This document shows, piece by piece, positions 12,671 through 42,180 of a stretch of 64,000 nucleotides of DNA. Numbering within the stretch: position 1 is the first letter of the stretch; the number at the start of each line of letters is the position of its first letter. This stretch comes from Puniceicoccaceae bacterium (GTDB lineage Bacteria > Verrucomicrobiota > Verrucomicrobiia > Opitutales > Oceanipulchritudinaceae): contig JBFOMH010000011.1 of the NCBI GenBank assembly GCA_040830765.1, forward strand, positions 29,255-93,254, in the 5' to 3' direction. The position numbers and the translations under genes were made by a program. The notes beneath the pieces are model-generated. The model ran no database searches, was not told where the DNA came from, and saw nothing but the letters and a program-made list of their open reading frames with translations.

Positions 12671-12707
12671 GATCCCTTTGCAGGCACTGGCATTTACACG
12701 TGGTTGA

Positions 12708-12770
12708 ATGCAAAAACACATGGGCCTGCTGACTTGTCCATTGATAAGGGAAGGGTCACTGGGATATGAT
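12708..12770 (+). promoter_or_regulatory. promoter of the GH5 gene with upstream candidate AraC site
   Basis: ATGCAAAAACACA (12708-12720), 20 nt, TTGATA-N18-TATGAT. Confidence 0.55.
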
Positions 12771-12817
12771 TTTTGCCAGCAACATCTGTTGCGATATTTC
12801 ACCATCTCCATGTTCCC

Positions 12818-14233
12818 ATGAAGACCATCAAACTCCTTTCCTACGTTCTAATCCTCACCCTGGCCCATCAGGGCCTGGCCCAGATCAGGGGCGCCCTTCG
12901 GGATGGGCAGGGCCGCCACGTCATCCCGCGGGGATTTGTCGTCAACACCAACGACCATGTTGGCCCGGTTGAGTTCAATGCCGATGACTTCGCCCGCATG
13001 GTCAGGCTGGGGGCCAATTATCAGGTTGTCCGGTTGGAGCTGGGCCGTCTCAGTACCTATCCGGGTTACCAGTTTGAGCCGAGCTATCTCGACAAGTTGG
13101 AACGCCTGGTCCGACTCGGGCGCGAGGCCGGCATTAAAACGGTCTTCAAGATGACGGTCTACACCGTCAAAGGCTTCTCCTGGGAGGATTTCTGGGCCAA
13201 TGAGGACAATGAGCAGGACATCTACCTTCAGGCATGGCGGCACGTCTGGAAGCGCTTCAAGGACGAGCCTGCGGTCGTCGCCTACGACCTCGTCAACGAG
13301 CCGCGCAAGCTGACGATGGAGATTTCCTATACGGACCTGACCAACAAACACCTGATTCCGTTGTACGAACGCCTGATTGACGAAGCACAGATGATCAGTG
13401 CGGACAAGTTGTACCTCTGCCAGACGATTTTCATGAACAAGGGTGAGGCAATTAACCATAATCAGTATGCGGAAATCACCAAGCCCATCAAGCGGGACGG
13501 AGTTGTGTTTTCACCACATATCTACCAGGACAAGATCGAATTGATTGAGCCCATCATGCGGCGCTTCGAGAAGGAGGCCCTGATGCTCGATGCGCCGATC
13601 CTCATCGGTGAGTGGGGCTTCCCGACCTATGAGTCGGCCGATACATCCGTCGAGGAGCAACTGGCCTACATCGAGATGTATGTCCGCACCGCGGAGGTTT
13701 TCGACGCCATGGGCGTCGGCTCCATCAAGGCCTGGTTTCTCGGTAACCGGACGATGCAGGATTTCCTGCCCGGCGGGCGCTCCACATGGGCCATCTTCAG
13801 TGACGAGGTTGCCGCCGGGACGGTGGAGAGGAAGTACATCACGGACGTCATTGCGCGACCCTATCCGCAGACCATCGCCGGGGATATCCATTCCTTCATG
13901 TTCAACCATGCGACTCGCGTCCTGGATTTCAAAATCACTCCCGACAACAGCACAGGGGCCTCCCGGATCTTTGTCGCGGCCGACCGGCACTATCCCGACG
14001 GCTTTTCCATCCATTGCGGGGATGACCTTGTCCTTTGTTACAATCCCCTCAATGCCAAAGGTATCGAGGTCATCAAGGCCGGCGCATCGACCAATCCCAG
14101 CGACTTTATCTGGAACCCAGCCACCCAGCAGCTCATCGTCCTCCGCTGGCCGGTGGACGGGGAGGAACTGACAGTGAAGATTGTCCCGGGGATTGCGGTG
14201 GTGGAGTCACTCAGACTTGCTGAGGGAAACTAG
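12818..14233 (+). CDS. GH5 glycoside hydrolase, endoglycoceramidase-like architecture, secreted
   Basis: Signal peptide; YDLVNEP acid/base and ILIGEWG nucleophile motifs; RPYPQTIAG leading into a C-terminal beta-sandwich. Confidence 0.8.
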   Translation: MKTIKLLSYVLILTLAHQGLAQIRGALRDGQGRHVIPRGFVVNTNDHVGPVEFNADDFARMVRLGANYQVVRLELGRLSTYPGYQFEPSYLDKLERLVRLGREAGIKTVFKMTVYTVKGFSWEDFWANEDNEQDIYLQAWRHVWKRFKDEPAVVAYDLVNEPRKLTMEISYTDLTNKHLIPLYERLIDEAQMISADKLYLCQTIFMNKGEAINHNQYAEITKPIKRDGVVFSPHIYQDKIELIEPIMRRFEKEALMLDAPILIGEWGFPTYESADTSVEEQLAYIEMYVRTAEVFDAMGVGSIKAWFLGNRTMQDFLPGGRSTWAIFSDEVAAGTVERKYITDVIARPYPQTIAGDIHSFMFNHATRVLDFKITPDNSTGASRIFVAADRHYPDGFSIHCGDDLVLCYNPLNAKGIEVIKAGASTNPSDFIWNPATQQLIVLRWPVDGEELTVKIVPGIAVVESLRLAEGN

Positions 14234-14252
14234 ATTAGCTTACCTTAACCGC

Positions 14253-14990
14253 TCACCGGTTCATCAACTCCTCGGCCAGAAGGGCTTCGGCTGCAGTGGC
14301 CAGGTCGACCAATTCTGTTAGTAAGCGCAGCCAGTCCTCATGGGTGTCTTCGGCCCAATAAAAGCCGTTTTTAACGATTGGATCGGCAAGCAGGGCGTCG
14401 AAATCGTAGTTTATACGGCGTTTTGGCTCGTAGATCAGGCCGCCGGCTGCTGACGCGCTGGGTGGTGACCTGTCTTCCGTGTAAAACTCAACGAGCGGGG
14501 AGATGTGTTTTTCCAAGTCGAGTGGAATGTTCCGCCACCATGAGAAATGGCCCTTCATCGTTTCTTGTTCGGCAAACAGGCTGGAGAGGGTCCTACGCAG
14601 GTCTTCTGATTCCAATCGGGCGAACATACCGGAAAAAACCATCTCGTCGTAGGCACTGCGGTTGACGGTAAAGGTCGGAAGGTGGCCGACGTAAATCAGT
14701 CCATGCTCAAAGAGATCGGTATTGCCATTAATAATCTCCCCTTGGTTGAGCGACTGGTAAACAAAGGAAACGCCTTCAAGATTTTCCCCGATGAAGGAAA
14801 GGATGGATTCCGAATCCGAAATAAAAACCTTCAACTCCTCATCCAGTCGCTGCAGGTATTGTGTCTCTGAACGGTGGTAGGAACGGGCTTCCCTCCACTG
14901 GTCGACCTGAAGGGCAATGATGATACCGATGAAAACAACAGAAAGGTCAATGAAGGCCGTCTTTAAAGTGGAGTTGAATCGTAATCGCAT
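14253..14990 (-). CDS. hypothetical membrane-anchored protein (DUF6090-like N-terminus)
   Basis: VVFIGIIIALQVDQWRE single TM segment followed by a helical domain. Confidence 0.65.
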   Translation of the reverse strand: MRLRFNSTLKTAFIDLSVVFIGIIIALQVDQWREARSYHRSETQYLQRLDEELKVFISDSESILSFIGENLEGVSFVYQSLNQGEIINGNTDLFEHGLIYVGHLPTFTVNRSAYDEMVFSGMFARLESEDLRRTLSSLFAEQETMKGHFSWWRNIPLDLEKHISPLVEFYTEDRSPPSASAAGGLIYEPKRRINYDFDALLADPIVKNGFYWAEDTHEDWLRLLTELVDLATAAEALLAEELMNR

Positions 14991-15034
14991 GATGCCTGTT
15001 GAATTATGAAGAAGCGTCTTTTGGAGACCGGACC

Positions 15035-16156
15035 TCAGGGCGTAATTTTCAGCGTGAAGGCCCGGCCTTGGACGGCGTGGTTACCGACGCCGACAATGAT
15101 CGTGTCCTCTGAGATGACGGCCAGGTTGCTGGCACCACCACCGGATTCATTGGCATAGGTGACCTTGCCCTTGGCCATCTCGAGCAGGTTGACCCATTCG
15201 TTCCAAGTCTCGCCCCCGTCGTCGGAAATCATCACCAGATGGCGGTAGATGGGTTGGCTCTGGTCAGTGGCCGACATGATCCAGTAGTCCTTCCCGTCGA
15301 AGGAGAAGGGAACACACTGCCCAAGAAACCCTTTTTCCCAGAACTGGTGGGCCTTCTGCCAGGTTTCCCCGTTGTCCTCGCTCTTGAAGAGGGTAGCAAT
15401 CCCGGAGGCGAGGACGTAGATGTCGTCGCCGGACTTGAAGAAATCCATCAGGTCGCGGGCAGCCGGGAATTCGGCTTTCCGGGTCCAGGTCTTTCCGTAG
15501 TCATTCGATTGATACACCTTGCCGGATCCTTCAAAACCGACTCCCGCATAGACGGTCGGGCCGCCCCAGTAACCGAAACAGGTTGTGTTCTGGCGCGGAG
15601 CCTCCGCGTCGACCACGATCCAGTTAAAGGAGGCGAAGTGGTCGCTCGACCGGAGGATGCTGATCAAGTTGTTCCTCGACCGCCGCAAGCCGACAAGGAT
15701 GGAGCCGTCATCAAGCTGCACTAGACCGACCGTTCGCGAAGCAGGTGCCGTGGCCATGATGGACCAGGTATCTCCGTCATCTTCTGATCGGCCGACGGTG
15801 CCTGGTTCGGTCGTCGTAATGTAGATATTGCCATCTTCGGCCCGGATGTAGTTTCGGACATCCGCAATGTCCCATTCGTCCCCGCCATCGAAAACCTTTG
15901 TCCAGGACATTCCTGCATCGCTCGTCTTGAAAATGTCACCGGTCTCCTCGGTGCCGATGAGGCCAACACCTTCCGCAACCCGGAATGAGGAGCGGACATT
16001 GGACTCCCCTTCCGGTTCGAAGATGTTGACGATTTCCGCGGTGGGAAAGCGGTCCTTCGGCTTTTGCCCCGGCAGGGACATGTCGACATCCACGTCGACC
16101 TGGCATCCAAATAAGAATAGGGAACAGGGAAGTAACAGGATCTGGTTTCGATTCAT
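15035..16156 (-). CDS. Asp-box (BNR/sialidase-like) beta-propeller lipoprotein
   Basis: Lipobox LFLFGC; six SxDxGxTW-like repeats (TSDAGMSW, SEDDGDTW, SSDHFASF, SNDYGKTW, SEDNGETW, SDDGGETW). Confidence 0.75.
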   Translation of the reverse strand: MNRNQILLLPCSLFLFGCQVDVDVDMSLPGQKPKDRFPTAEIVNIFEPEGESNVRSSFRVAEGVGLIGTEETGDIFKTSDAGMSWTKVFDGGDEWDIADVRNYIRAEDGNIYITTTEPGTVGRSEDDGDTWSIMATAPASRTVGLVQLDDGSILVGLRRSRNNLISILRSSDHFASFNWIVVDAEAPRQNTTCFGYWGGPTVYAGVGFEGSGKVYQSNDYGKTWTRKAEFPAARDLMDFFKSGDDIYVLASGIATLFKSEDNGETWQKAHQFWEKGFLGQCVPFSFDGKDYWIMSATDQSQPIYRHLVMISDDGGETWNEWVNLLEMAKGKVTYANESGGGASNLAVISEDTIIVGVGNHAVQGRAFTLKITP

Positions 16157-16293
16157 CGGAACTGATTGAATTAGAGTACCTTAGATTTTCCTTCAAGCGT
16201 GTTTTTGGTCGGCCTGTATGCGGCTATTGACGATGGGGACGACCCTTGACCCCTTCAGATCTACCTTTCACCATGGTACCCAGCCAACCTCAT

Positions 16294-17703
16294 ATGATGA
16301 AAAAGTCTCTCCTGATCCACCCGGCCTTACTTGCCTCCATTGCTGGATTCGCGGCCCCGCCGCCCAACATTGTCATCATATTCAATGATGATCAGGGGTA
16401 TCAGGATTTGGGCTGTTACGGCTCGCCCGACATCAAGACCCCACGGGTTGATCAACTGGCGCAGGAGGGCATGCGTTTTACTGACTTCCTGGTGGCCTCG
16501 CCGGTCTGCTCGCCTTCGCGAGCGTCCCTGCTGACTGGTTTGTATCCCCACAAAGCGGGTGTGAGGGGAGTCTTTTTTCCCAACCGGGGCTATCATGGAT
16601 TGGCTCCGAGTCAGGTGACGATTGCGGAAACCCTGCGTGATGTGGGTTACGCAACAGCCGCAGTCGGCAAGTGGCACCTTGGTGATCATGTGGACTTCCT
16701 GCCAACCAACCAGGGCTTTGATAGTTATTTTGGCATCCCCTACAGCAACGACATGTATCCGGCCCAGGACATGCGGTATGCCGCTGACTGCATCTATCTG
16801 GAAGGGGAGACACCCGAGACGATTCGGCAATCCTTTGAGGAGGAATTGAGGAGAGGCAATCCCGTGGCCATGCGAGACAAGGTTCCCTTGATGCGGGATG
16901 AGGAGTGCATCGAGTTCCCGGCAGACCAACGGACCATTACCCGCCGCTACGCCGACGCAGGTATTCGCTTCATTCGGGATAGCGTGGATTCCGGCAAGCC
17001 ATTCTTCCTCTACCTGGCCAATACCATGCCCCATGTCCCGCTTTTTTCGTCCGAGCCATTCACCGGCAATAGCGAGCGAGGACCCTATGGGGATGTCATC
17101 GAGGAAATTGATTTTTATACGGGAAGAATCCTCGATTGTCTGGAGGCGCTGGGTATCGAGGAAAACACGATTGTCATCTTCACGTCGGACAATGGCCCCT
17201 GGCTGACCAAGGGCGAGGAGGGTGGCTCCGCTGATCCGCTTTTTGAAGGCAAGTTCTCAGGCTTTGAAGGCGGTCATCGGGTCCCTTGTATCATTCGTTG
17301 GCCGGGCAAGATCCCGGCTGGAAGTGTTTGTGCCGAAATAACCTCTACAATCGATTTTCACCCGACCCTGGCGGGTCTGGCAGGTGCGGAGCTCCCCGCA
17401 ATTGAGCTGGATGGCAAGGATGTGCTCGACCTGTGGCTGGCCAAAGAAGGAGCAGAATCCCCGCACGAGTACTTTTTCTATGTGCACCGGGGGCAAGCGG
17501 TCCGTTCGGGCGACTGGAAGTACCACTTGAAGGAAGTGTTTCCCGTCAAGGCAACCGCCCGCGAGTACACAGGTCCATCATTGTACAACCTTCGCGACGA
17601 CATCGGGGAGGCGAACAATGTGATAACTGAGTATCCAGAGGTCGCGGAGCGCCTTTCAGCTCAACTGGACGCCTTCCTCAGTGACTGGGCCAAGGAGGAA
17701 TAA
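16294..17703 (+). CDS. S1 sulfatase (arylsulfatase A-like)
   Basis: PNIVIIFNDDQG, CSPSR, GKWHLG, GIPYSNDM, FTSDNGPW. Confidence 0.92.
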   Translation: MMKKSLLIHPALLASIAGFAAPPPNIVIIFNDDQGYQDLGCYGSPDIKTPRVDQLAQEGMRFTDFLVASPVCSPSRASLLTGLYPHKAGVRGVFFPNRGYHGLAPSQVTIAETLRDVGYATAAVGKWHLGDHVDFLPTNQGFDSYFGIPYSNDMYPAQDMRYAADCIYLEGETPETIRQSFEEELRRGNPVAMRDKVPLMRDEECIEFPADQRTITRRYADAGIRFIRDSVDSGKPFFLYLANTMPHVPLFSSEPFTGNSERGPYGDVIEEIDFYTGRILDCLEALGIEENTIVIFTSDNGPWLTKGEEGGSADPLFEGKFSGFEGGHRVPCIIRWPGKIPAGSVCAEITSTIDFHPTLAGLAGAELPAIELDGKDVLDLWLAKEGAESPHEYFFYVHRGQAVRSGDWKYHLKEVFPVKATAREYTGPSLYNLRDDIGEANNVITEYPEVAERLSAQLDAFLSDWAKEE

Positions 17704-21487: not shown

Positions 21488-24400
21488 TTACATCGGTGGA
21501 GCCACTTCGAGGACCAACGCTGTCGTTGCCTGTCTGCTGCCAAGGCTCAAGGGGCCGCTGGCCGCCATGTAATCGACACCGGGTACCGGTTGGAAGACTC
21601 CGCCACCTTCCATGTAGAGGGCGACGACGACATGATAGTCGCCGGTTAAACCCGCATCCGGGAAGGCTAGGACGAGGTTCTTGGAGTCGCTGAGGATATT
21701 GTCGATATCCCCGATGCCATCCCCGTCCCCATCAGCATTGCTGATCTCCGCCAGGACTGCGGCAGGCGGTCCCATCACCGGCAGGCTGTGAGCCAGCGTG
21801 ACCAGCAACTTGCTCTTGTTGCCAGTGAATCCTTCCGGCAGGGAGATATCCACCACGAGGCTGCCTTCAGGATGGACTTGCTCCATGATGAAGGCCTTGC
21901 CGAAGGTCATGGTGGTACCGACCCAGTCATCATCACCATCATCATCCATGTCCTGCATGGCAAAATCACCCGGCAGGCGGATGTTCCTGAAGATGAGGTT
22001 CGGTTTCCATGGGGGCGGTTCCCCATGACCGGGATTCTGGTGCCAGAAACCGCGGTGGGCCGTATGGTCGGCACTGCAGACATCCATCAGGCCATCCTGG
22101 TCCATGTCGGCCAGCCACATGTCGCTGGGTGAGGTCAAGTCATCAATGATAATTTCCTGGGCCCATGGATCCATGAGGACGCCGCCCGGATTCCAGTAGC
22201 GGGTGACTGTAGAATTGAAGATCTGGTTGGCGATGAGGTCCTTGAAGCCGTCACCATCGAAGTCATGGAACCACATGTCGGCTGCTGCCCAGTTGTCGTC
22301 ATCTATGACGACCATGGGCCAGGGGTCGCCCCAGTGGCCCGGACCCGGATTGATGGCCAACCAGATCTCCCCGCGGTAGCGCGGTGGGTTGGTGTCCGGA
22401 ATATCAAACATGGCATTGTAGATGATTTCCGGGTAGCCGTCGTTATTGAGGTCGGCGCTCTTGTAGGCAAGCGTTCCCCGGATATGGGGATCGGTCGCCG
22501 GGTCCATCGGCAAGAGGTGTTCCACCCACGGGATCAGGGGAATCCCGGTATTCTCCAGCCAGCTTCCGACCGCCGAGGTTTGAAAGGCCCCGCTCAAGGC
22601 GAGGTCCTCGTCCCCGTCATTGTCGATGTCGGCGGCGACCACGATCATCGCATTGTAATTGGTCACGGTTGGGTCCGGATTGTGCCGGACCACCGAGCGG
22701 ACCCAGAGGTCACCTTCCTGCTTGTAGGAAAGAACAATACCCGAACCTTCTTCAAGCGGAGCCAGTTCGGGGATATTGCATCCGACAATGATCATCGGCG
22801 CACCGCTATGCTCGATAACCTTGACCCCCCATGGACTGTAGAAGAGGGGATCGCCTTCCGACCAGGAGTCGAGAATTTCCGTGGATTTCACGGTCATGTC
22901 TGGATTCATGTAGTAGACACCCAGCTTGAGGACCTCCAGCGGCAACTCGGGCTCTTCAAAGTGCGGTTCACCAACCATGATGATGTCCTTCACGCCGTCC
23001 CCATCGAGGTCGTAGACATCAAGGTAGATCGCTCCCGGGACAAATCCATCCTCACCCAGCATGTGTTCTTCCCAGAGAAGTGGCCCAGTCAGACGGTGTG
23101 GGTGGTAGGGATTGATGTCGCTTGGATTACCCTGCGGGATGAATAGGTCAAGGGCACCGAAGTCAGCTGCCTGGTCAGGATCGAAGATCAATGTCCCTGC
23201 TGAAAAGCCCCGGGCGTCGGTTGGCTCGACAACGAAGTTTGCGGCCACGCCGGTGACAACAACGAGACCGAGCCGCTCACCTATCAGTTCCTCACCGGAG
23301 AAGGTGAAGAGGTTGCCCTCGATGGGAATGTGGATGTCAATGGGGAATTCGGCCGGGACGGGAACGGTTTGTGTAACCACTGCCGTCGGGGTTGGCAGGG
23401 TCAGGTAGCCTTGGGGCCAGTCTTCCTCGGCGGTCTTGTAGAGCATCAGCTTCAGATCCGGTCCGGTCACTTCCTCAGCGTGGACCGTGACACAGATGGT
23501 CCCGCTTTCACAACTTGGCCCGATGATGGGCAGACCGAGATCCACCCGGCCGAAGTCGAGGCCCGTCTCCATCGAGTAGACGGCGGTATGGGTTGAGAAA
23601 CCACGCGGATCGTCCGGATCCGCTACCATGTCCGCCGAGGAGAGGATGGCCAGGCCAAGATGGGCCCCTTGGATGGGTTTGCCGCTCAAGGGCATAATGT
23701 TGCCATCCGGCGGAATACGCAGGCGTGCCGGGAAGGATTCGGGGACGGGCTGCGGTACGGTGATCATCCAATCCGGCATAGGCAGCCCGGTAAAGTCATC
23801 CGGCCACATGCCAGCCGACAAGTCATAGAGCATCAGCTTGAGATCATCCTCGACGGGAACAGTCGAATCCAGCACCACCGAGAGGGCCCCGGGTGGGTTG
23901 TAGTGGGATTCCTCATACATGTCCGGGGCGGTTTTCTCGAGCGCCTCCATGATGGCGATTTTTGCCAGGAACTCCAACCCGTCCCGGAAAAGTTCCTTTC
24001 CCGGTTCAAGATCGGCAATTCCGGTCGAAGTGTAATAGACCGTCATTCCCGAAGCGCGAACTTGGGTGACGACACCTTCTTGCGGCAGGACAGGTCGCCC
24101 CACAGCGGGATTGGCGACATCATACATCGTATGGATGGCCGCGGTCGGGAAGGCCGATGGTACCACCACGACATGGGTGTACCCCTCGTATTCAAATTCC
24201 GCCAGCGCATCACCAATTTCCGGTGTTGAGTAATTCATCCGTCCGGTCTTGGAGGCCCAGGGCAGGGACATGGCGATTTCCTCGTGAAAAGCGTCTTCCG
24301 TCTGGATTAGCTCCGAATAGATTTCCCCTTCCTGCCATCCGAACTCAGGGTAGGGAGGGACATAGGGAGTCCCGTGGGAAGCCAGCACCACCCCAATGTT

Positions 24401-25288
24401 GTGGTCCTGAACCCCCTCCGGAATGAATTCAGACAGGTACCAAGTCATTGAGACAATGGCATCGCGGAGGCTTTTGCGCATGTAGGGGACTTCAAAGAAG
24501 GGTTCCGCGACCATCACATCCATCCCATGGGTGAGGTGCTCCACCTCTTCCATCTGGCCGGTGATTTCATCGGTATGCGTTGATTTGGCGACCAGCATGG
24601 GGACAACCACCAGTTCATCGTAATCCCCCTGGGCGATTTCGTAGACAACATCCGGGATTCGCGGCACCTCATCCAGTAGAGCGAGAAAGACATCCACCTT
24701 GGCGCCGTGCACCTTGATATCGAGACTGTCGACATGGGCCTGTATGCTGTCGTTGTGAGGGCTGTAGTTTCCGGTCTCCGCGTAATGCATGTAAATGAGC
24801 CCGTGAAAGGCCTCCCAAGAGAAGAAACCGGGAACATCCCCGTGGGGAACAATTCCCACTTCATGGATGATGCCGTTGCCATTGATGTCGCCAAAGATGT
24901 AAGCCAGAGCAGTGGCAATTTCCTCGTAAGCCGCTGCCCACTCCGTGTACTGGAACATGGGCGGCACGCCCAGTTCAACCCCGTGCGGGCCAAATTCGGA
25001 TCCGTCCGGAAAAACAATGGGAATATCACCGTCCTCGGCGGTGGCGGGCTCCCCGTGGCCAACATACATCAGGGCCACCTTGGGAATGCGGTTATTGTCT
25101 TTGGGTTTGTTGACGGCGGCGCGTGCCTTATCAGAGGCCTGCGGAGGAAGCTGGACTTCCGGAGCGTATCTGTCGGCAAGTGTCCGGGACAGCTTTGACT
25201 TGAAAGCCTTGGCTTCCAGCGTGGACAATCCGAGCGGGGTAAGCAGCAATGCGGTGGCTATGCACCATGCGAGCGTGCGGATTTTCAT
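21488..25288 (-). CDS. secreted multidomain protein: class II (HemH/CbiK/CbiX) chelatase-like domain, two tandem ~120-aa domains, FG-GAP beta-propeller, C-terminal domain
   Basis: GGAGGA SD before ATG 25288; signal peptide. Chelatase motifs VGHGEP, HYAETGNYSPH, VVVPMLVAKSTH, VVLASHGTP, YSTPEIGDAL, VVVVPSAFPTAAIHTMYD. Repeated DxDxDG loops (DLDGDGVKD, DIDNDGDED, DLNNDGYPE, DFDGDGFKD, DMDQDGLMD, DMDDDGDDD). Confidence 0.8.
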   Translation of the reverse strand: MKIRTLAWCIATALLLTPLGLSTLEAKAFKSKLSRTLADRYAPEVQLPPQASDKARAAVNKPKDNNRIPKVALMYVGHGEPATAEDGDIPIVFPDGSEFGPHGVELGVPPMFQYTEWAAAYEEIATALAYIFGDINGNGIIHEVGIVPHGDVPGFFSWEAFHGLIYMHYAETGNYSPHNDSIQAHVDSLDIKVHGAKVDVFLALLDEVPRIPDVVYEIAQGDYDELVVVPMLVAKSTHTDEITGQMEEVEHLTHGMDVMVAEPFFEVPYMRKSLRDAIVSMTWYLSEFIPEGVQDHNIGVVLASHGTPYVPPYPEFGWQEGEIYSELIQTEDAFHEEIAMSLPWASKTGRMNYSTPEIGDALAEFEYEGYTHVVVVPSAFPTAAIHTMYDVANPAVGRPVLPQEGVVTQVRASGMTVYYTSTGIADLEPGKELFRDGLEFLAKIAIMEALEKTAPDMYEESHYNPPGALSVVLDSTVPVEDDLKLMLYDLSAGMWPDDFTGLPMPDWMITVPQPVPESFPARLRIPPDGNIMPLSGKPIQGAHLGLAILSSADMVADPDDPRGFSTHTAVYSMETGLDFGRVDLGLPIIGPSCESGTICVTVHAEEVTGPDLKLMLYKTAEEDWPQGYLTLPTPTAVVTQTVPVPAEFPIDIHIPIEGNLFTFSGEELIGERLGLVVVTGVAANFVVEPTDARGFSAGTLIFDPDQAADFGALDLFIPQGNPSDINPYHPHRLTGPLLWEEHMLGEDGFVPGAIYLDVYDLDGDGVKDIIMVGEPHFEEPELPLEVLKLGVYYMNPDMTVKSTEILDSWSEGDPLFYSPWGVKVIEHSGAPMIIVGCNIPELAPLEEGSGIVLSYKQEGDLWVRSVVRHNPDPTVTNYNAMIVVAADIDNDGDEDLALSGAFQTSAVGSWLENTGIPLIPWVEHLLPMDPATDPHIRGTLAYKSADLNNDGYPEIIYNAMFDIPDTNPPRYRGEIWLAINPGPGHWGDPWPMVVIDDDNWAAADMWFHDFDGDGFKDLIANQIFNSTVTRYWNPGGVLMDPWAQEIIIDDLTSPSDMWLADMDQDGLMDVCSADHTAHRGFWHQNPGHGEPPPWKPNLIFRNIRLPGDFAMQDMDDDGDDDWVGTTMTFGKAFIMEQVHPEGSLVVDISLPEGFTGNKSKLLVTLAHSLPVMGPPAAVLAEISNADGDGDGIGDIDNILSDSKNLVLAFPDAGLTGDYHVVVALYMEGGGVFQPVPGVDYMAASGPLSLGSRQATTALVLEVAPPM

Positions 25289-25443
25289 ATTAAATCCTCC
25301 ATAGAGCTTGTTGTTGTTCAAGGGACCCGGGGGGGTCCCTTCGGCGAGATGTTTTGGGGTGTAGTCGCTTGAAAGAAACGACTGAGTCTTGATATAGGGT
25401 ATTTACCTTAAGGTCAAGGTTGAATCTATTCCTTGGATCCAAT

Positions 25444-32609: not shown

Positions 32610-34529
32610 ATGTCTGTTCATTTTACTCCCAGCCAGTACTCTTCGATGAGAGAGTGTACCCGGATTTCATCGCGTGTCGGGAAGTGCTTTTTTTCCCTGT
32701 ATTTCCTGCTGGTGCATGCGATGGTTGCGCAAGGATTGCCGGTAACGGTCATGGATCCCGGCAACGATCCCCTGGCGTTAACCGTTGAAGCGGCAGATAC
32801 AATCCTCGAGCTCAAGGAAGAAATCCTCACCGCCCGTGGGTATCCGGTGGAGGAGCAGGTGCTTGTCTACGACGGGAGCCGGCTGGCTGACAGCAGTACC
32901 ATTGAGGAGAATGCAATAGTGTCCGATGGCGTCCTGTACCTGACCCTTGAGACAGGGGAGGGTATGGGGATCTCCAACGTCACCCTCGGCCCGGAGACAT
33001 TGGAAATTGACACAAACCGGATGACCATGGGGATCAGCCATGTTCTTGAACATTCCCCGGAGCTTACGGATCCTGCCGTGTGGAACAGCGAGGCTGAAAT
33101 TGTTGCCACATCAGCGGCGGACACCCTGACCATTCCAGCGCCGGAGGAAGCCTCTGCCTTTTACCGTGTCCGTGAACGGAATCCCCGCCCGCCGGTGACC
33201 CAGTACGAGGGTTACGAATTGATTTGGCATGACGAGTTTGAAGGACCTGATATCAATCCGGAGAACTGGGAACATCATCTTGGCGACGGGAGTCTGTATG
33301 GACTTCCTCCGGGTTGGGGAAATGCCGAGATGCAGATCTATACCGCTGAGCCGGCAAACTCGTCCATTGTTGGTGACGGTGAAGGGAATTCGGTCTTGCT
33401 CATCCAGGGGCAGCAGGATCCCATCGACGGCGGTATAACCTCGGCGAAGTTGGTCACCCAGGACCTGCAGAGTTTCCGCTACGGGCGCATTGAGGCGCGG
33501 ATCCGGTTGCCGTTTAGCAAGGGAGCCTGGCCTGCCTTCTGGATGTTGGGGATCAATCAGCCAATCGTCCCCTGGCCGGGCTGTGGCGAGATTGACATCA
33601 TGGAGATGCTTGGTGGCGAAGAGGACACGATACACGGAACGGTTTTTTATATTGATGCCGACCGGCAGCCAGGTGGATCCACGGATTTCGTGACGAATCC
33701 GTCCGGCCTATACAGCGATGCCTATCACATCTATCGTATCGACTGGACACCTACTGAAATCACTTGGTCAGTTGATGGCGTACCGTACCATACAACGCTT
33801 CTGGAAGATGACATGAAGGAGTTCCAGAGGGGCTTCTATCTTATCCTGAATCTGGCAGTGGGGGGATTCTGGCCAGGCAATCCCGATAGAACTTCCGTGT
33901 TCCCGATGCGCATGTTTGTGGACTGGGTTCGCGCCTATCGGGATGTGGATCTGGTGGATCCGGGCGAGCCGGCGTTGGATGTTGAAGAGGAAACGATCGA
34001 CGTGATTATTTTCGACGGCTCTGCGGCGATCAAGGAAGGCTTTGAACCGTTCCAGAATCTGGCCACCAAGACCTGGGGCCCGGGTGCACCAGAGGGGATG
34101 CTTTCCTTCGAAGCAGTTGACGGAACTTACAGCGTGCTGGACCAATGGAAATCAAACGGCTATGGCGGCATGTGGTGGGTGTTCACGGATCCCCTTGATG
34201 CGAACAAGGTTGTCCCTCAGGACCTCAGCGCCTATGAGGGAGGCAATCTGGTGATGGCCCTCAAGGTGCCTGAAACTGTTGCCTTCTATTTCGAGGTGAA
34301 GCTCGAGTCTTCAGGCCCGTTCGGCAAGGTTAACCTTCTCGATTACACCCCGGTGCCACTCAGCGGGGGCTTTGCCGAATACACCATCCCTCTGGCCGAT
34401 TTTACTTCCCAGGGATTTGACCTCACCAAGGTGACGATTCCTCTTGGACTCTGGAATCCCCAGAGTGAGCAGGGGGTTTACGTGGATGCAGAGGTCTTGA
34501 TCGACAACGTCCACTGGACGCTTCCGTAA
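32610..34529 (+). CDS. secreted GH16 beta-glucanase (laminarinase-like) with N-terminal ubiquitin-like domain and C-terminal CBM-like domain
   Basis: LIWHDEF, GWGNAEMQ, YGRIEARI, WPAFWMLG, GEIDIME catalytic motif, LILNLAVGG. Residues ~43-113 align without gaps to ubiquitin. Start may be ATG 32646. Confidence 0.88.
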   Translation: MSVHFTPSQYSSMRECTRISSRVGKCFFSLYFLLVHAMVAQGLPVTVMDPGNDPLALTVEAADTILELKEEILTARGYPVEEQVLVYDGSRLADSSTIEENAIVSDGVLYLTLETGEGMGISNVTLGPETLEIDTNRMTMGISHVLEHSPELTDPAVWNSEAEIVATSAADTLTIPAPEEASAFYRVRERNPRPPVTQYEGYELIWHDEFEGPDINPENWEHHLGDGSLYGLPPGWGNAEMQIYTAEPANSSIVGDGEGNSVLLIQGQQDPIDGGITSAKLVTQDLQSFRYGRIEARIRLPFSKGAWPAFWMLGINQPIVPWPGCGEIDIMEMLGGEEDTIHGTVFYIDADRQPGGSTDFVTNPSGLYSDAYHIYRIDWTPTEITWSVDGVPYHTTLLEDDMKEFQRGFYLILNLAVGGFWPGNPDRTSVFPMRMFVDWVRAYRDVDLVDPGEPALDVEEETIDVIIFDGSAAIKEGFEPFQNLATKTWGPGAPEGMLSFEAVDGTYSVLDQWKSNGYGGMWWVFTDPLDANKVVPQDLSAYEGGNLVMALKVPETVAFYFEVKLESSGPFGKVNLLDYTPVPLSGGFAEYTIPLADFTSQGFDLTKVTIPLGLWNPQSEQGVYVDAEVLIDNVHWTLP

Positions 34530-34694: not shown

Positions 34695-36254
34695 GTGTAT
34701 CTAACATCCGGTGACATGGAAGGACTGGTAGAATTATTCGCTGAAAAAGTTGTTGGCTCCGGGATTGTCGATGTGACGCAGGTGAGGCAGATCCGCAATA
34801 CATGCGGAGAGCCAGCGGACATTATTGTCTTCGGGGAGGCCCTCCTGAAGCATTTCCCGGACAAGTTTGAAGCGGTCCAGGGCCTACTGGACGAGACAGC
34901 GGATGCCTACACCAAGGGTGAGCGTGCCAACGGCGATCCGTTCGAGGCTGAATCCGCAATGCCGGAAGAGCAGGTAACAACTTCTTTTGAGGCAAGTCAG
35001 CCTGCTCCAGTAAAGGTATCCAAACCCGTCCCGCAAAAGCCGGTCAAACCGGCGCCACAACCCGAGGCAAGCGCTACTGTTCAACCCGGAAACGATTTCA
35101 CCAAGCGTCCTCAGGAAACAGTGGTATCCGCTGCGGGCATCGAGGCGGGTATCCCGGACTTTTCCTCCCTTGACCCCAGCAACCGGGAACAGATCGCCTC
35201 GGCCCTGATTGGGATGCTTTTGGAGCTCGGTGGGCACGACTTCAGCGACCTGCACATTTCCGGTGGATCCCGTCCCTTTGGCCGACGCTTCGGCAAGCTG
35301 GAATATATCGCTGAGAGCCCGATGGACGATGCACTGGCGGAGGCCTTTGGGATGGCCCTGATTTCGGATGAACAGAAGGCTTATTTCGAATCCTGCCAGG
35401 ACTATGACTTTGCCATCGCGCTGGATAATGGCCGCCGCTACCGGACCAACCTGATGCAGCACCGGGATGGCTTGAAGATCACCTTCCGGCTGGTCCCGGA
35501 AAAGGTGCTTTCCCTTGAGGAACTGGGCTTTGGCGCGCACACCGAGACCATCAAGAACCTTCTGGCTTATCACAACGGGCTCATCCTGGTGACGGGACCG
35601 GTTGGCTGCGGCAAGACGACCACCCTCGCAGCGATGGTGGATGAGCTGAACAAGACTCGAACGGACCACATCATTTCCGTCGAGGACCCGATCGAAATCG
35701 TCCATCGCTCCGACCAGTGCTCGGTGACCCAGCGCGCCGTTGGTCCCCACACGAATAGTTTCAAGAGTGCGCTCAAGGGCGCTCTCCGACAGGACCCGGA
35801 TATCATTGTCATCGGGGAGATGCGAGACCTTGAGACAATTGAAATGGCCATTAGTGCCTCGGAGACGGGTCACCTTGTCATCGGGACAATGCATACTTCC
35901 GATGCGGCGATGACCTTGAATCGCCTCCTGGATGTGTTTCCGCCGGCCGCCCAGTCGCAGATCCGGGCCATGGTTGCGGAATCGCTCCGGGGAGTTATCT
36001 GCCAACGCCTCCTGCCGGGGACGAGCGGGCACTCCGTGCTGGCTTCCGAGATCCTGATCAAGAACATGGCCGTTTCCGCCCTGATCCGGGATGGCAAGCA
36101 GGCCGGGCTTGGCAACATCATGGAAACGGGGAAAAGGGAAGGCATGATCCTGATGGATGCCTGTGTCATGGAACTTTTTCAGGGTGGAAAAATCTCCGCC
36201 GAGACGGCCCGGGCCAACATCCAGAACGAGATCATTCGCCGCAACATTACCTAA
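34695..36254 (+). CDS. pilT: PilT/PilU-family pilus retraction ATPase with long N-terminal extension
   Basis: SDLHI, GLILVTGPVGCGKTTT, EDPIE, LRQDPDII..GEMRD, ETGHLV.GTMHT. Confidence 0.9.
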   Translation: MYLTSGDMEGLVELFAEKVVGSGIVDVTQVRQIRNTCGEPADIIVFGEALLKHFPDKFEAVQGLLDETADAYTKGERANGDPFEAESAMPEEQVTTSFEASQPAPVKVSKPVPQKPVKPAPQPEASATVQPGNDFTKRPQETVVSAAGIEAGIPDFSSLDPSNREQIASALIGMLLELGGHDFSDLHISGGSRPFGRRFGKLEYIAESPMDDALAEAFGMALISDEQKAYFESCQDYDFAIALDNGRRYRTNLMQHRDGLKITFRLVPEKVLSLEELGFGAHTETIKNLLAYHNGLILVTGPVGCGKTTTLAAMVDELNKTRTDHIISVEDPIEIVHRSDQCSVTQRAVGPHTNSFKSALKGALRQDPDIIVIGEMRDLETIEMAISASETGHLVIGTMHTSDAAMTLNRLLDVFPPAAQSQIRAMVAESLRGVICQRLLPGTSGHSVLASEILIKNMAVSALIRDGKQAGLGNIMETGKREGMILMDACVMELFQGGKISAETARANIQNEIIRRNIT

Positions 36255-36266
36255 TCTTTCTTAGCC

Positions 36267-37316
36267 ATGCCAATCATCGATCAATACTTGCGGACCATGC
36301 TGGAACAGGATGGATCCGACCTCCACATCAGCGTCGGGGCCCCGGTCAAGATCCGGGCCGGTGGGGCTGTCCAGTCCATCACGGGAGAGGAACTTTCGGA
36401 CGATTTCACAGCCCAGATGCTGCAGGAAATCGTCAGTCCGGAACGCTGGCAACATTATCTCGAAACCAAGGATTTGGACTTCGCCTATGAAATTGATGGC
36501 CTGGCCCGCTTCCGCGGAAATTACCTCTACAACCACTGGGGCATGGCCGCGGTCTTCCGGCAAATCCCCGCCAATATTCTTTCCTTTGATGACTTAAACC
36601 TGCCCGAGGTCTTGAAGCAGGTCTGTGAGTACAAGGAAGGTCTGGTCCTGGTAACCGGGCCGACTGGTTCCGGGAAGTCGACCACCTTGGCGGCCATGAT
36701 CGATTACATCAATACGAACGCCAACAAGCACATCATCACCATCGAGGACCCGGTTGAGTTTGTTCACCCGCGGAAGAACTCGGTCATCGTGCACCGCGAG
36801 GTCGGCATTCATTGCGACAGTTTTGCCAGTGCGCTCCAGGGCGCGATGCGGGCGGACCCGGACATTGTCCTGGTGGGAGAAATGCGTGAGCTCGAGACCA
36901 TCCGGCTGGCGCTGAGTTGTGCCTCCATGGGAATGCTGGTCTTCGGGACCCTGCACACCAATAACGCTCCCAAGACGATTGACCGCATCATCGATGCCTT
37001 TCCGGCCGATGAACAGGAGCAGATCCGGATCATGCTGGCCGGATCGCTTTCCTGCGTTGTTTCCCAGCTGCTGTGCAAGAAGGTCCCCAAAGGCAGGGTG
37101 GCCGTTCATGAGATTCTTCTCAAGCATGACGCCCTTCCCAATACCATACGCACGGGAAAAATTTCCGCCATCCGGGGAATCATCGAGAGTTCCAGCAAGG
37201 AGGGCATGTGCCTGATGGACAATTCCATCATGGATCGTTTGCAGAACGGCGAAATAACGGCAGGCGAGGCCTACATGAAGGCCACCGACAAGGAACGGTT
37301 CAAGGCCCTGGTTTAG
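36267..37316 (+). CDS. pilT: PilT twitching-motility ATPase
   Basis: GSDLHI, GPTGSGKSTT, TIEDPVE, RADPDIVLVGEMR, GTLHT. Confidence 0.93.
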   Translation: MPIIDQYLRTMLEQDGSDLHISVGAPVKIRAGGAVQSITGEELSDDFTAQMLQEIVSPERWQHYLETKDLDFAYEIDGLARFRGNYLYNHWGMAAVFRQIPANILSFDDLNLPEVLKQVCEYKEGLVLVTGPTGSGKSTTLAAMIDYINTNANKHIITIEDPVEFVHPRKNSVIVHREVGIHCDSFASALQGAMRADPDIVLVGEMRELETIRLALSCASMGMLVFGTLHTNNAPKTIDRIIDAFPADEQEQIRIMLAGSLSCVVSQLLCKKVPKGRVAVHEILLKHDALPNTIRTGKISAIRGIIESSSKEGMCLMDNSIMDRLQNGEITAGEAYMKATDKERFKALV

Positions 37317-37846: not shown

Positions 37847-39970
37847 ATGAAACCATTTAGCCATATCATCATTTTATCCTTACTGGCATCTGCCTCCACC
37901 ATGGCAGGAGCCACCGATCATCCAGAATCAAATTCCCCTTCATCCCATGAGCATGTCCATGACTTGGATCCCTTTGTTGTGGATGCCACCCTGGCCCCGA
38001 GGAACAGCCGGGATATGCTCAACCCCACGACAGTGGTCACGGCGGTTGAACTTGAACAAACACGAACAGCGACCATCGGGGACACCCTTGATGGTCAACC
38101 AGGCGTCCACTCGACTGCCTTTGGTGCGGGTGCCAGCCGTCCGGTAATCAGGGGACTGGAAGGGGTGCGTTTGAAAGTCATGGAAAGTGGCGTCGACAGC
38201 GGCGACCTTTCCGCTGACAGCCCGGATCATGCGACGGGCATTGAACCGTTCTTCATCGACCGTATTGAAGTCCTGCGGGGGGCATCGACCCTTCTCTACG
38301 GGAGTTCGGCCATCGGGGGCGCAGTCAATGTCATTGACCGGCGGATTCCGCGGCAAATGCCCGAAAAGGCTACTGCCGAAGGTCTTCTGAGCTACCAGTC
38401 CGCTGCTGAAGGATGGACCTACGGGGCTCTTGTTGAGGTTCCAGTGGAGCAGTTCGTCTTTTCGGCCAGTTACCTGGACCGGGACCATGGGGACTATTCC
38501 ATCCCTGGAATTGCTGAACTGGAAAGCGAACATCATGACGAAGATGAGGACCATGATGAAGACGAACATGAGCACGAGGATGAAGAGGTCGCCGGCATTC
38601 TGGAGAACTCCTTTCTGGGATTGAGCACGGCTTCGTTGGCACTGTCCTGGTTCCCGTCTGATCAGACCCGCTTTAGCATAGCCTGGCAGACGACAGACTC
38701 CCTTTACGGCGTTCCCGGACATGCCCATGGGCACGAGGAAGACGAGCACCATGAAGATGAAGAACACGAGTATGAGGACCACCATGAAGAGGAGGAAGAG
38801 GAGGGGGTCGCCATCGACCTGGAGCAATCCACACTTGATCTGGAACTGGAACACCGGTTGAACGGTAACTGGTTGAAGTCCTTCGAGGGACGGATCCGGT
38901 ATGTGGACTATGAACACCAGGAGCTCGAAGGCGACGAAGTCGGGACCGACTTTGACAAGGAATCGATCGAGGCCCGGCTCCTTGCAACATATGCCACAAG
39001 CAACGAGAATCCCGGGGCCATTGGCGTCCAGTGGAGTCGCCTCGATTCAAAGTCGGTTGGTGAGGAATCCCTGACCCCAGAGTCGGAAACCACCGACTTT
39101 GCTGTTTTCCTGGTTCAGGAGTGGCACTACGACAACTTCCGCATCGAGGGGGGCTTGCGCACCGAACACAGGGACATCGACGCCATGGGTACCGGAGGCT
39201 ACGGAGACTGGGCCTATTCCGCGTCGGCAGGCTCCCGGTGGATCCTCACCGAGCAACTGTCCCTGGGCTTGCTGTTCAATCATGCCCAACGCCATCCAAC
39301 AACGACCGAGCTTTATGCTAATGGGCCACATGCGGCGACCCGGCAGTTCGAAATCGGGAATCCGGACCTTGGGGTTGAAAAGGCCAATGGCCTGGACCTG
39401 TCCCTGCAGTATACCGGTTCCCAATTTAGCTTTGGGCTGACGGCCTTTGCAACCGACTTCGCTGATTACATCTATGCCGCACCGACGGGTGAGGAGGAGG
39501 ATGAACTGCCGGTCTATGTGTTCGATCGGGCAGATGTGGAATTCGTCGGCCTGGAAGCGGAATCCACCTGGCATGTATGGGACAGGGAAGATGCCTGGCT
39601 GGACCTCGGCCTTCTTTTCGATTGGGTGGATACGGATATCAAGGACTCTTCAGATGCCTTGCCACGGATTCCTCCCGCCCGGGCAGGGATCCAGTTGCTG
39701 TATGGTTCCGACCTTATGACCTTCAGCACCCGGGTAATGAGAAGCTTCAAGCAGGACGAAACGGCCCTGAACGAGTTGCCAACGGATGCCTACACCGATT
39801 GGACAGCTTCGCTTGCCATCAATCTGCCAATCCAGGAAGGAAGCTGGCGGCTGGTTGTTTCGGGTGAAAATCTTCTCGATGAGGAGATCCGGGTCCACAC
39901 CTCTCCGATCAAGGACCTCGCCCCGTCTCCCGGTCGGCATGTCCGTGTCACCTTGTCGGCGGCATTTTAG
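37847..39970 (+). CDS. TonB-dependent receptor, ZnuD-like (His/Glu-rich loops)
   Basis: FGAGASRPVIRG, SPDHA, IEVLRG..TLLYGS.AIGGAVN plug; two His/Glu tracts; ELYANGPHAAT; C-terminal Phe. Confidence 0.88.
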   Translation: MKPFSHIIILSLLASASTMAGATDHPESNSPSSHEHVHDLDPFVVDATLAPRNSRDMLNPTTVVTAVELEQTRTATIGDTLDGQPGVHSTAFGAGASRPVIRGLEGVRLKVMESGVDSGDLSADSPDHATGIEPFFIDRIEVLRGASTLLYGSSAIGGAVNVIDRRIPRQMPEKATAEGLLSYQSAAEGWTYGALVEVPVEQFVFSASYLDRDHGDYSIPGIAELESEHHDEDEDHDEDEHEHEDEEVAGILENSFLGLSTASLALSWFPSDQTRFSIAWQTTDSLYGVPGHAHGHEEDEHHEDEEHEYEDHHEEEEEEGVAIDLEQSTLDLELEHRLNGNWLKSFEGRIRYVDYEHQELEGDEVGTDFDKESIEARLLATYATSNENPGAIGVQWSRLDSKSVGEESLTPESETTDFAVFLVQEWHYDNFRIEGGLRTEHRDIDAMGTGGYGDWAYSASAGSRWILTEQLSLGLLFNHAQRHPTTTELYANGPHAATRQFEIGNPDLGVEKANGLDLSLQYTGSQFSFGLTAFATDFADYIYAAPTGEEEDELPVYVFDRADVEFVGLEAESTWHVWDREDAWLDLGLLFDWVDTDIKDSSDALPRIPPARAGIQLLYGSDLMTFSTRVMRSFKQDETALNELPTDAYTDWTASLAINLPIQEGSWRLVVSGENLLDEEIRVHTSPIKDLAPSPGRHVRVTLSAAF

Positions 39971-40758: not shown

Positions 40759-42180
40759 TTATTCAGGAGGCTGATAAGGATCGGGAGTCCCCAGTTGGAT
40801 GGGTGGCTCCTCTGCGAGCGTAGCCTGGAATTCGACGATCTTCTTGAACATGACCGGGAGAACCCATGTCGCCTCAGCCGCCATATTGTATTCCTCTTTG
40901 GGGTCCGATATGAGGTTATAGACCCGCGGAACGTTCAGTTGCCGGGGTTCGCTGTTCATGTTCTCCAGCTCGACCAGGTGCATCTTCCAGTTGCGCCATT
41001 TGTAGCCATATACATCATCGTTATTGAAGACGATAAAGCCCTCGCGGTTCGACTTTGCCTGCTTGCCAAGGAAGAAGTCCAGTTGGTCGACGCCATCGAT
41101 GATGCGATCGTCGGGTACCGTATAGTTTGCCACGCGACCCAACGTCGGGAGGATATCGACCACGTGGACAATCTCATTGCTGACGCTGCCTGCAGGAATC
41201 TTTTCGGGCCAGCGGATGAGGAAGGGAACCCGTAGCGAACCTTCCCAGGCGGTAAAGTAATTCCCCCGCCACGGACCGGCTGTGCCATGCCATGGATAAA
41301 AGTATTCCGGACCGTTGTCGCTCAACCAGATCACGAGCGTATTGTCCCGGATGCCAAGGTCATCGATGGCATCGAGGACCTGTCCAGACCGGTAGTCAAT
41401 CTCAGCGAGGACATCCGCGTAGTGGCCATTGCCAGTCTTCCCCTCGAAGTCCGGATGGGGCAGGGTGGGAAGGTGTGGTTGGGTGAAGGGGATGAAGGCA
41501 AAGAATGGCTCTTCTTCGGCCGTGCTTTTATTCATGAAGGCGACCGCCCGTTCGACCAGTTCACTGTCAATGGTTCGCCTCGCGGCCACGTCATACGGTT
41601 TCACCTCGGTCGGGATTTCCCCTTTCCTCGCTTCTGAAATGACGGCATTTACCCCGACATCCGGGTCGAATTGGAATTGTGAGGAGTATTCCGATTCGTC
41701 GGTCGTGTTGGCCACGCCATACCATTCGTCGAAGCCCTGATCCGTGGGGAAGCGGCCTGGTGTATCGCCGATGTGCCACTTTCCGAACATTCCCGTCTTG
41801 TAGCCAGCGTCTGAAAACAGCTCGGCCATCGTCACCTCCCAGTTGGTCAGCCCGTAGAGCATGCCCCAGACGACCCGCGTTGTCCCCGAACGGATAGGAC
41901 GCCGGCCGGTCATGAAAGCGGACCGTGTTGGCGTACACTGGGGCTCGACGTTGAAGTTCTGCAAGAGCATCCCCTCCCTGGCCAGTTGATCCAGTCGAGG
42001 CGTAGCGGCTCCCCTCAGTTCACCCCCGCCATAACATCCAAGTTCTCCCCAGCCAAGGTTGTCGACCATCATGACAACCACATTTGGTCGTTCCGGAACG
42101 GATTCGGCATGGGCCGTGACTCCGGCTATGAATGCAATCGTGAGGACTATTCCTGCAATTTTGGTTTTGCTCAGATTCAT
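40759..42180 (-). CDS. S1 arylsulfatase, secreted
   Basis: PNVVVMMVDNLGWG, CTPTR, GKWHIG, SDNGP; signal peptide. Confidence 0.92.
   Translation of the reverse strand: MNLSKTKIAGIVLTIAFIAGVTAHAESVPERPNVVVMMVDNLGWGELGCYGGGELRGAATPRLDQLAREGMLLQNFNVEPQCTPTRSAFMTGRRPIRSGTTRVVWGMLYGLTNWEVTMAELFSDAGYKTGMFGKWHIGDTPGRFPTDQGFDEWYGVANTTDESEYSSQFQFDPDVGVNAVISEARKGEIPTEVKPYDVAARRTIDSELVERAVAFMNKSTAEEEPFFAFIPFTQPHLPTLPHPDFEGKTGNGHYADVLAEIDYRSGQVLDAIDDLGIRDNTLVIWLSDNGPEYFYPWHGTAGPWRGNYFTAWEGSLRVPFLIRWPEKIPAGSVSNEIVHVVDILPTLGRVANYTVPDDRIIDGVDQLDFFLGKQAKSNREGFIVFNNDDVYGYKWRNWKMHLVELENMNSEPRQLNVPRVYNLISDPKEEYNMAAEATWVLPVMFKKIVEFQATLAEEPPIQLGTPDPYQPPE

Follow-up and report, generated by a model that had tools for sequence, protein, structure and literature searches.

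Ubiquitin-family domains are a hallmark of the eukaryotic cell interior, and laminarin is a major glycan of the ocean. The two meet in a stretch of 64,000 nucleotides from a marine Puniceicoccaceae bacterium (contig JBFOMH010000011.1; the whole analysed stretch is hereafter called the window), where a gene on the forward strand encodes a glycoside hydrolase family 16 (GH16) enzyme with a ubiquitin-like N-terminal part. The locus raises the question of what such a domain is doing at the front of a bacterial glucanase: whether it truly belongs to the ubiquitin family, whether it could modify other proteins, how it came to be there and what it may be for. Our analyses indicate that the gene product is almost certainly an exported, modular endo-beta-1,3-glucanase that opens with a true ubiquitin-family domain, followed by a second domain (domain X), a linker, the GH16 catalytic domain and, at the C-terminus, a putative glycan-binding domain. 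The ubiquitin-like domain and domain X are referred to jointly below as the Ub+X module.

The 71-residue peptide at issue is the exact translation of positions 32736-32948 on the forward strand, and the opposite strand carries a stop within that frame. On its own, the peptide matches the ubiquitin family PF00240 at 45.0 bits (E 9.3e-12; Pfam gathering cut-off 25.4), and within the whole protein the match is 40.4 bits (E 2.5e-10). The Rad60-SLD model PF11976, of the same clan, reaches 36.1 bits (cut-off 23.8). Together with a chance Hexapep hit these were the only Pfam matches at E<=10, with none to the other bacterial beta-grasp families YukD, ThiS/MoaD, SLBB and DUF2604. When chains from the PDB were compared with phmmer, residues 12-71 aligned without gaps to residues 12-71 of ubiquitin, with 20 identities in this stretch and V5 bringing the count to 21 of 71 (hmmalign counts 20 identities over 59 aligned positions). 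Single-copy ubiquitins in the PDB score ~28 bits (E ~1e-5) with the peptide as query and the ubiquitin-like domain (UBL) structures of Dsk2 score 29.8 bits. A profile of the 12-member family described below raises single ubiquitins to ~38 bits (E ~1e-8). All 12 module sequences of that family match PF00240 at E<=1e-3, and E18, K27, Q41, L43, D52, I61 and L67 (ubiquitin numbering) are invariant among them and the same as in ubiquitin. Within the ubiquitin family the scores are similar against ubiquitin, RUB1/NEDD8, the Dsk2 UBL and the Rad23 UBL; the NCBIfam rad23 model hits the domain at 33.9 bits, far from its whole-protein cut-off of 207 bits. Against the PADLOC defence models the whole protein had no match, and the module alone had a single one at E 0.055.

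The predicted structure agrees with this assignment. An AlphaFold2 (AF2) model of the N-terminal module, built from a 12-row alignment, has a mean predicted local distance difference test score (pLDDT) of 91.6 and a predicted template modelling score (pTM) of 0.78. Its residues 1-72 contain strands at 2-7, 14-18, 42-46, 48-50 and 66-72 and a helix at 24-35, which is the beta-beta-alpha-beta-beta-beta order of ubiquitin. A Foldseek search of the PDB returned ubiquitin chains with target-normalised template modelling (TM) scores of 0.91-0.97, root-mean-square deviations of 0.7-1.4 A and 28-30% identity. The fold match is equally good to structures 8hm1 and 8hm2 of BfUbb, the ubiquitin homologue of Bacteroides fragilis, at 19-20% identity.

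The initial annotation, made from the letters of the sequence, had described the peptide as a gap-free match to ubiquitin with 21 identities, lacking the C-terminal di-Gly and with Lys48 replaced, and had placed it at the N-terminus of a secreted GH16 glucanase. Its translation, family, beta-grasp fold, identity count, missing di-Gly, Lys48 replacement (by Ser) and GH16 assignment are all borne out here, and its claim of secretion gains a signal-like N-terminus and a conserved processing site, which make export a prediction. Of the two outcomes that it had named as fatal to the idea, the lack of a significant PF00240 match and a predicted fold other than beta-grasp, neither came about. We also considered a chance or compositional artefact, or an unreal reading frame, and rejected this, leaving it practically no probability in view of the E value of 9.3e-12, the PF00240 matches in 12 of 12 relatives, the confident fold and a reading frame conserved from end to end in 11 more proteins.

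The longest open reading frame (ORF) around the peptide runs from 32610 to 34529 on the forward strand and has 639 codons for amino acids. A database copy of the protein, P0002, is 100% identical and 627 amino acids long; it begins at M13 of the ORF (32646), which is likely to be the start codon of the GH16 gene. The parts of the gene are as follows.

32610/32646..34529, forward strand: whole gene, encoding a modular, predicted secreted GH16 endo-beta-1,3-glucanase (from the ORF list, the P0002 copy and domain matches)
32646..32735, forward strand: putative Sec-type signal peptide (MRECTRISSRVGKCFFSLYFLLVHAMVAQG), with a predicted cut after A-Q-G (from translation, hydropathy and ortholog conservation)
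32736..32951, forward strand: ubiquitin-family (PF00240) beta-grasp domain (from Pfam, PDB alignment, the AF2 model and Foldseek)
32952..33179, forward strand: domain X, a six-strand beta-sandwich of ~75 amino acids ending in FYRVRE (from AF2 strands at 79-148 of the module)
33180..33203, forward strand: short, conserved Pro-rich linker, NPRPPVTQ (from translation; D/NPRPPVTEY in orthologs)
33204..33944, forward strand: GH16 catalytic domain of the laminarinase (endo-beta-1,3-glucanase) type (from PF00722 and PDB matches)
33588-33605, forward strand: catalytic motif EIDIME (from translation)
33960..34526, forward strand: C-terminal beta-sandwich, weakly galactose-binding-like, a putative carbohydrate-binding domain (from a sub-threshold PF18559 match, AF2 and conservation)

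Export of the protein is predicted because its N-terminus has basic residues followed by a hydrophobic core, with a Kyte-Doolittle peak of 2.15 over ORF residues 26-40, and because the A-Q-G site at the ...LAQG/F junction is kept across orthologs. The ubiquitin-like domain starts directly after this site. Ahead of the hydrophobic core (window 32610-32700, forward strand) the orthologs also share a conserved SS.RRVEFVSSRCWR-like stretch, which is unusually well kept for the n-region of a signal peptide.

The enzymatic part of the protein is conventional. The GH16 domain matches PF00722 at 83.4 bits, and its nearest PDB matches, 2vy0 (6e-59), 2hyk, 3atg, 9voq and 3azx, are all beta-1,3-glucanases or laminarinases, with E values from 1e-54 to 6e-59. 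All 13 aligned sequences keep the catalytic E, D and E of the EIDIME motif. By this ExDxxE motif and its characterised relatives the domain is of the laminarinase type, and hydrolysis of laminarin is predicted. On the C-terminal domain the family PF18559 (Exop_C) reaches 18.8 bits, under its cut-off of 26.1. In a full-length AF2 model from a 13-row alignment the last ~130 residues are the best part, with pLDDT values of 74-95; the mean is 50.3 and the GH16 part lies at 20-30, so that the model is uninformative on the arrangement of the domains. Likewise, a complex prediction of the Ub+X module with the GH16 and C-terminal part gave a score of 0.00 and a mark of 0.32, which speaks neither way.

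Could the domain be attached to other proteins, as ubiquitin is? L71 is followed by ETGEGMG, and from there the polypeptide passes into domain X. A di-Gly at the C-terminus of the ubiquitin-like domain is absent in 12 of 12 family members. In the window protein positions 48 and 63 are both Ser, and K27 is the sole lysine in the 71 residues. Because the C-terminus runs on into domain X, there is no di-Gly, only one lysine is present and the domain is predicted to lie outside the cytoplasm, it cannot be conjugated; it is an integral UBL and does not serve as a modifier of proteins. None of the 40 window ORFs scanned with Pfam encodes an E1 activating enzyme, an E2 conjugating enzyme, an E3 ligase or a deubiquitinase.

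We searched 5.8 billion proteins for relatives of the whole protein and obtained 2018 matches, of which the best 120 were examined. Among these 120, 12 proteins combine PF00240 with GH16: the copy of the window protein and 11 others, which are 51-64% identical to it and all come from metagenomes. Where database names are given they read 'beta-glucanase (GH16 family)', with the exception of P0035, a 'hypothetical protein' of 382 amino acids that diverges midway through the GH16 domain. The next-best GH16 proteins in this set are ~460 amino acids long, several are labelled Bacteroidota, and they are without the Ub+X module. A scan of one genome per prokaryotic species yielded a single locus, L001, at the contig end of a metagenome-assembled genome of Pontiella sp.; it holds the first 55 module residues only, matches PF00240 and, over 89 residues, shares 53% identity with the window protein. 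Pontiella belongs to the Kiritimatiellota, in the Planctomycetes-Verrucomicrobia-Chlamydiae (PVC) group (NCBI taxonomy), and is the sole relative with a genus name. Just upstream of the family member in L001 (1906-2820, forward strand) lies a gene for a 304-residue, exported-looking protein with a GH16-like 'ELDFEF' motif by eye and no Pfam match at E<=1e-3; a RIO-kinase gene is found further upstream.

Does the module occur in front of anything other than GH16 enzymes? Word-based searches are weak evidence on this point, and the search with the Ub+X profile missed the true members P0005 and P0008; its 10 matches among proteins longer than 269 amino acids, and the 3 matches to the peptide alone among proteins longer than 126 amino acids, all belong to the same Ub+X+GH16 family. 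When 1.84 billion cluster representatives were searched exhaustively with a HMMER profile, 7417 of them matched at E<=1e-3. The best 150 of these 7417 are nearly all poly-ubiquitin arrays of the eukaryotic type (the 14 of them that were scanned have 5 to 22 PF00240 stretches each), and the only matches among them with a single Ub+X stretch are P0007, P0035 and a 111-residue fragment, P0216. Rescoring by domain put the family at 105-145 bits; the best score outside it was 44, and ordinary ubiquitin repeats reached 36-38. The best 150 have a score floor of ~147 bits, so lone ubiquitin-like domains that score lower fall outside the list. Because any other fusion of Ub+X would exceed this floor, the two-domain module seems confined to the GH16 clade. 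None of the 38 PDB chains matched by the window protein covers the N-terminal module.

How the module entered and left the family can be read from a maximum-likelihood tree of the catalytic and C-terminal part in 58 sequences, with P0035 left out as truncated. A clade of 12 members, with a support of 100/100, consists of 11 Ub-bearing proteins and P0010, which carries a signal peptide of its own but not the Ub+X module. P0010 and the window protein (P0002) are sisters (100/100), and this pair is nested in a five-member subclade (100/100). P0010 and P0002 share 71% identity from the linker onward, and their similarity begins exactly at this Pro-rich stretch. Because P0010 nests inside the Ub+X clade, the tree shows a single gain of the module, at the root of a small GH16 clade in marine PVC-group bacteria, and one later loss. 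P0010 also has an extra 57-residue, Trp-rich C-terminal tail (residues 478-534) that belongs to no Pfam or NCBIfam family; this tail may be an alternative anchoring device that replaces the N-terminal module. In the nearest outgroup GH16 proteins, the slot between signal peptide and GH16 domain is filled by PD40 repeats, cadherin-like (PF17803) or Ig-like (PF16403) modules.

Once gained, the ubiquitin part has been retained by selection. Averaged over the 55 pairs that the 11 full-length members form, identity is 0.41 for the signal peptide, 0.70 for the ubiquitin-like domain, 0.51 for domain X, 0.79 for GH16 and 0.70 for the C-terminal domain. The value for the ubiquitin part equals that of the C-terminal domain, and this pattern of conservation shows clear purifying selection on the ubiquitin part. 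The invariant positions are V5, P12, E18, K27, R34, Y36, Q41, L43, V44, D52, I61, L67, Y68 and T70.

The source of the domain is less readily traced. GC content at third codon positions (GC3) is 0.69 in the ubiquitin segment and 0.65 in the whole gene. The two values are alike, and nothing in GC or GC3 marks the segment as recently acquired from a foreign source. The nearest Atlas clusters of the ubiquitin part are nearly all eukaryotic where taxa are recorded, with one archaeal, and serve as leads only. The horizontal acquisition proposed by the initial annotation is therefore still plausible as far as a eukaryotic source goes, given these neighbours. No donor can be named, because identity to ubiquitin is ~30%, the scores against ubiquitin, NEDD8, Dsk2 and Rad23 are similar and GC3 is native-like.

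The second part of the module, which the initial annotation had missed, is the beta-sandwich of 75 residues that accompanies the ubiquitin-like domain. Neither Pfam nor NCBIfam nor the PDB sequences yield a match to domain X, and a local hidden Markov model of it hits only the GH16 Ub+X family. The 617 six-frame ORFs of the window contain no second ubiquitin-like or X domain. Foldseek on the two-domain model returned ubiquitin hits only. Look-alikes of X among the Atlas structures (TM 0.73-0.82), which we regard as a lead only, occur in many secreted proteins of Verrucomicrobiota and Kiritimatiellota, including a GDSL lipase, GH44, peptidases and NHL and LVIVD repeat proteins. Domain X may be an undescribed module of the PVC group.

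What might the module do for the enzyme? Our tentative and weakly supported proposal is that Ub+X is a non-catalytic accessory unit that would dock the glucanase to another protein, with the ubiquitin-like domain acting as a docking surface, as the UBLs of Rad23 and Dsk2 do. The partner would probably be a cell-surface or outer-membrane protein, and laminarin would then be cut near the uptake machinery. We favour docking because Ub+X occupies the slot of the Ig-like, cadherin-like and PD40 modules in sister GH16 enzymes, and because the best-conserved surface positions are those with which ubiquitin binds its partners: the beta1-beta2 loop, 44, 68, 70 and the 34-38 loop. The invariant residues shared with ubiquitin (E18, K27, Q41, L43, D52, I61 and L67) are core or salt-bridge residues. 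The family-specific conserved set comprises the DPGNAP beta1-beta2 loop, R34-G35-Y36-P37-V38, V44, Y68 and T70, and maps to what we take to be the Ile44 and Ile36 patches, the partner-binding faces of ubiquitin. There is also a precedent, in that secreted BfUbb binds a SusCD-type transporter, as described in the available part of PMC11467351. A more specific form of this proposal, in which Ub+X is an extracellular docking tag through which a laminarinase that is not a lipoprotein attaches to a partner in the outer membrane, for example a TonB-dependent transporter, is in our judgement quite unlikely.

Several points weigh against docking. The family has only 12 sequences and its conservation statistics are thin, and the conserved residues were placed on exposed patches from the known surface of ubiquitin and not by computation. 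The pTM of 0.78 suggests that the two domains form one rigid unit in the model, and the conserved face could therefore be the interface between them: the 'ubiquitin face' may pack against domain X. Since P0010 does without the module, the enzyme can dispense with it. The upstream genes of L001 differ from those of the window and L001 ends inside the gene, so synteny gives no hint. In addition, export is predicted from hydropathy and the conserved A-Q-G site, and an Atlas fold match over the 75 residues of domain X is weak evidence.

The main rival to docking is a passive structural module, a stable and soluble N-terminal cap or spacer that would aid folding yield, protease resistance or catalytic reach with no specific partner. 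Ubiquitin is very stable and is used as a solubility tag. Unrelated beta-rich modules fill the same slot in sister enzymes, P0010 lives without any such module, and most of the invariant residues belong to the ubiquitin core (K27-D52, Q41, L43, I61 and L67), all of which would suit a cap. However, the invariant, family-specific R34, Y36, V44, Y68 and T70 and the DPGNAP loop exceed the needs of a spacer, and the ubiquitin part is more conserved than X (0.70 vs 0.51); a passive cap is possible, if somewhat doubtful. The N-terminal accessory modules of carbohydrate-active enzymes are often carbohydrate-binding modules (CBMs), and Ub+X could be a new CBM-like module that targets laminarin or algal or particle surfaces. 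The invariant aromatic residues Y36 and Y68 in the ubiquitin part and W117 and Y144 in X would fit such a role, but the sequence is of the ubiquitin family proper, with no SLBB or CBM Pfam match at E<=10, and a galactose-binding-like domain is already present at the C-terminus. We know of no PF00240 domain that binds glycans, and glycan binding by the module seems rather unlikely, even though secreted, ligand-binding beta-grasp domains do occur in bacteria according to the available parts of PMC1796856 and PMC1949818.

The initial annotation had offered two further roles, a folding or secretion tag and an interaction module with algal hosts. A role essential to folding or export is disfavoured because P0010 lost the module, and an obligatory tag is unlikely given that this sister protein has a signal peptide and no Ub+X. 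A related idea is that the module is a secretion or maturation device, read by an outer-membrane export machinery of a type II-like kind or acting as a pro-domain that is cut at the Pro-rich linker. It is N-terminal and directly behind the signal peptide, the linker is conserved, and two T2SSE/PilT-like ATPase genes lie directly downstream (34695-37316). Yet besides the case of P0010, those ATPases match a generic T2SSE/PilT-type Pfam family, the neighbourhood comparison stops where L001 ends inside the gene, and neither a protease site nor a di-Gly is present, which makes such a device improbable. We found no support for an interaction with algal hosts. A eukaryotic ubiquitin mimic acting on an algal host, or a weapon or import tag against other bacteria in the manner of BfUbb, would have a parallel in BfUbb itself, a secreted antibacterial ubiquitin homologue imported via a SusCD-type transporter (available parts of PMC5705921 and PMC11467351), and the window does encode degraders of algal glycans. 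Identity is however ~30% to ubiquitin and 19-20% to the BfUbb structures, the domain is fused to an enzyme instead of free, the lack of di-Gly and acceptor lysines bars it from a host conjugation pathway, and it is extracellular with no delivery system evident; we regard a mimic or weapon as highly improbable.

The gene content of the window fits a marine glycan degrader. The 40 ORFs scanned with Pfam include three sulfatases, GH78 and GH106 rhamnosidases, a GH5 enzyme and TonB-dependent receptors. Two GH78 rhamnosidases, one GH106, BNR proteins, two of the sulfatases and GH5 are clustered at 1-17703, which suggests the breakdown of a sulfated, rhamnose-rich algal glycan; the third sulfatase is at 40759-42180. 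The two tandem T2SSE/PilT-like ATPase genes stand directly 3' of the GH16 gene on the same (forward) strand, and beyond them are a TonB-dependent receptor and a ThuA-like gene (region 37847-39970, forward strand). On the reverse strand, a 1277-residue ORF at 21488-25321 has both ferrochelatase/CbiX-like and FG-GAP repeat matches, an unusual pairing. GC content falls from ~0.56 over the first 43 kb (1-43 kb) to ~0.48 at 44-64 kb. The low-GC stretch (43000-64000) carries flavin adenine dinucleotide (FAD) oxidoreductases, a CotH/LTD/Fn3-associated protein, a sugar transporter of the major facilitator superfamily, a TonB-type receptor and a phosphoketolase-like gene; a genomic island or a join in the assembly could account for it.

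How new is this architecture? Like the integral UBLs of Rad23 and Dsk2, the window domain is a PF00240-type beta-grasp that heads a larger protein and is neither processed nor conjugated. Unlike them, it is bacterial, exported, fused to a glycoside hydrolase, strongly acidic and endowed with a single lysine, and there is no extracellular proteasome or ubiquitin-interacting motif (UIM) partner for it. The GH16 laminarinases of marine and thermophilic prokaryotes have the catalytic domain and the ExDxxE motif in common with the window protein, but not the N-terminal module. The Ig-like, cadherin-like and PD40 modules of sister GH16 enzymes take the same slot, but their folds and families are unrelated and none is of the ubiquitin family. 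The closest bacterial parallel is BfUbb, which the available part of PMC3352274 describes as a secreted Bacteroides fragilis ubiquitin homologue, 63% identical to human ubiquitin, and which acts against other bacteria via a periplasmic peptidyl-prolyl isomerase (PPIase) after import through ButCD (available part of PMC11467351). Both are bacterial ubiquitin-family folds sent out of the cytoplasm and, as far as the accessible text of PMC3352274 and PMC5705921 goes, BfUbb is likewise not normally conjugatable. They differ in that BfUbb is a free toxin of ~76 residues, whereas the window domain is part of a 627-residue enzyme, is ~30% identical to ubiquitin and comes from another phylum. The window domain was likely acquired independently of BfUbb.

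The initial annotation knew of no fusion of a ubiquitin domain to a carbohydrate-active enzyme, and this agrees with our survey: no fusion to a bacterial glycoside hydrolase was found in the literature searched, which took in few subscription journals, and the available parts of PMC1949818 and PMC3482391 make no mention of one. The architecture is recorded in databases, where pipelines have applied PF00240 tags, and seems to be undescribed in print. The fusion combines two known kinds of component, an integral UBL and a GH16 laminarinase, and does not amount to a new kind of system.

The finding adds a second, likely independent case of an exported bacterial ubiquitin-family domain, in another phylum, and this one is built into a polysaccharide-degrading enzyme and kept by selection. 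It indicates that the ubiquitin fold is reusable outside the cell without conjugation machinery, and it brings a new kind of accessory module to the enzymes of marine carbon cycling. If the module is only a stable cap, it would be a curiosity of domain shuffling. If it serves for docking, it could reveal how bacteria of the PVC group, which are without the lipoprotein system of Bacteroidota, keep enzymes near their transporters. Were docking to a TonB-dependent transporter to prove true, the pair would be a counterpart outside Bacteroidota of the known enzyme-transporter surface complexes and a mirror image of the use that BfUbb makes of SusCD, and the domain would be the first of the ubiquitin family to work in extracellular glycan capture.

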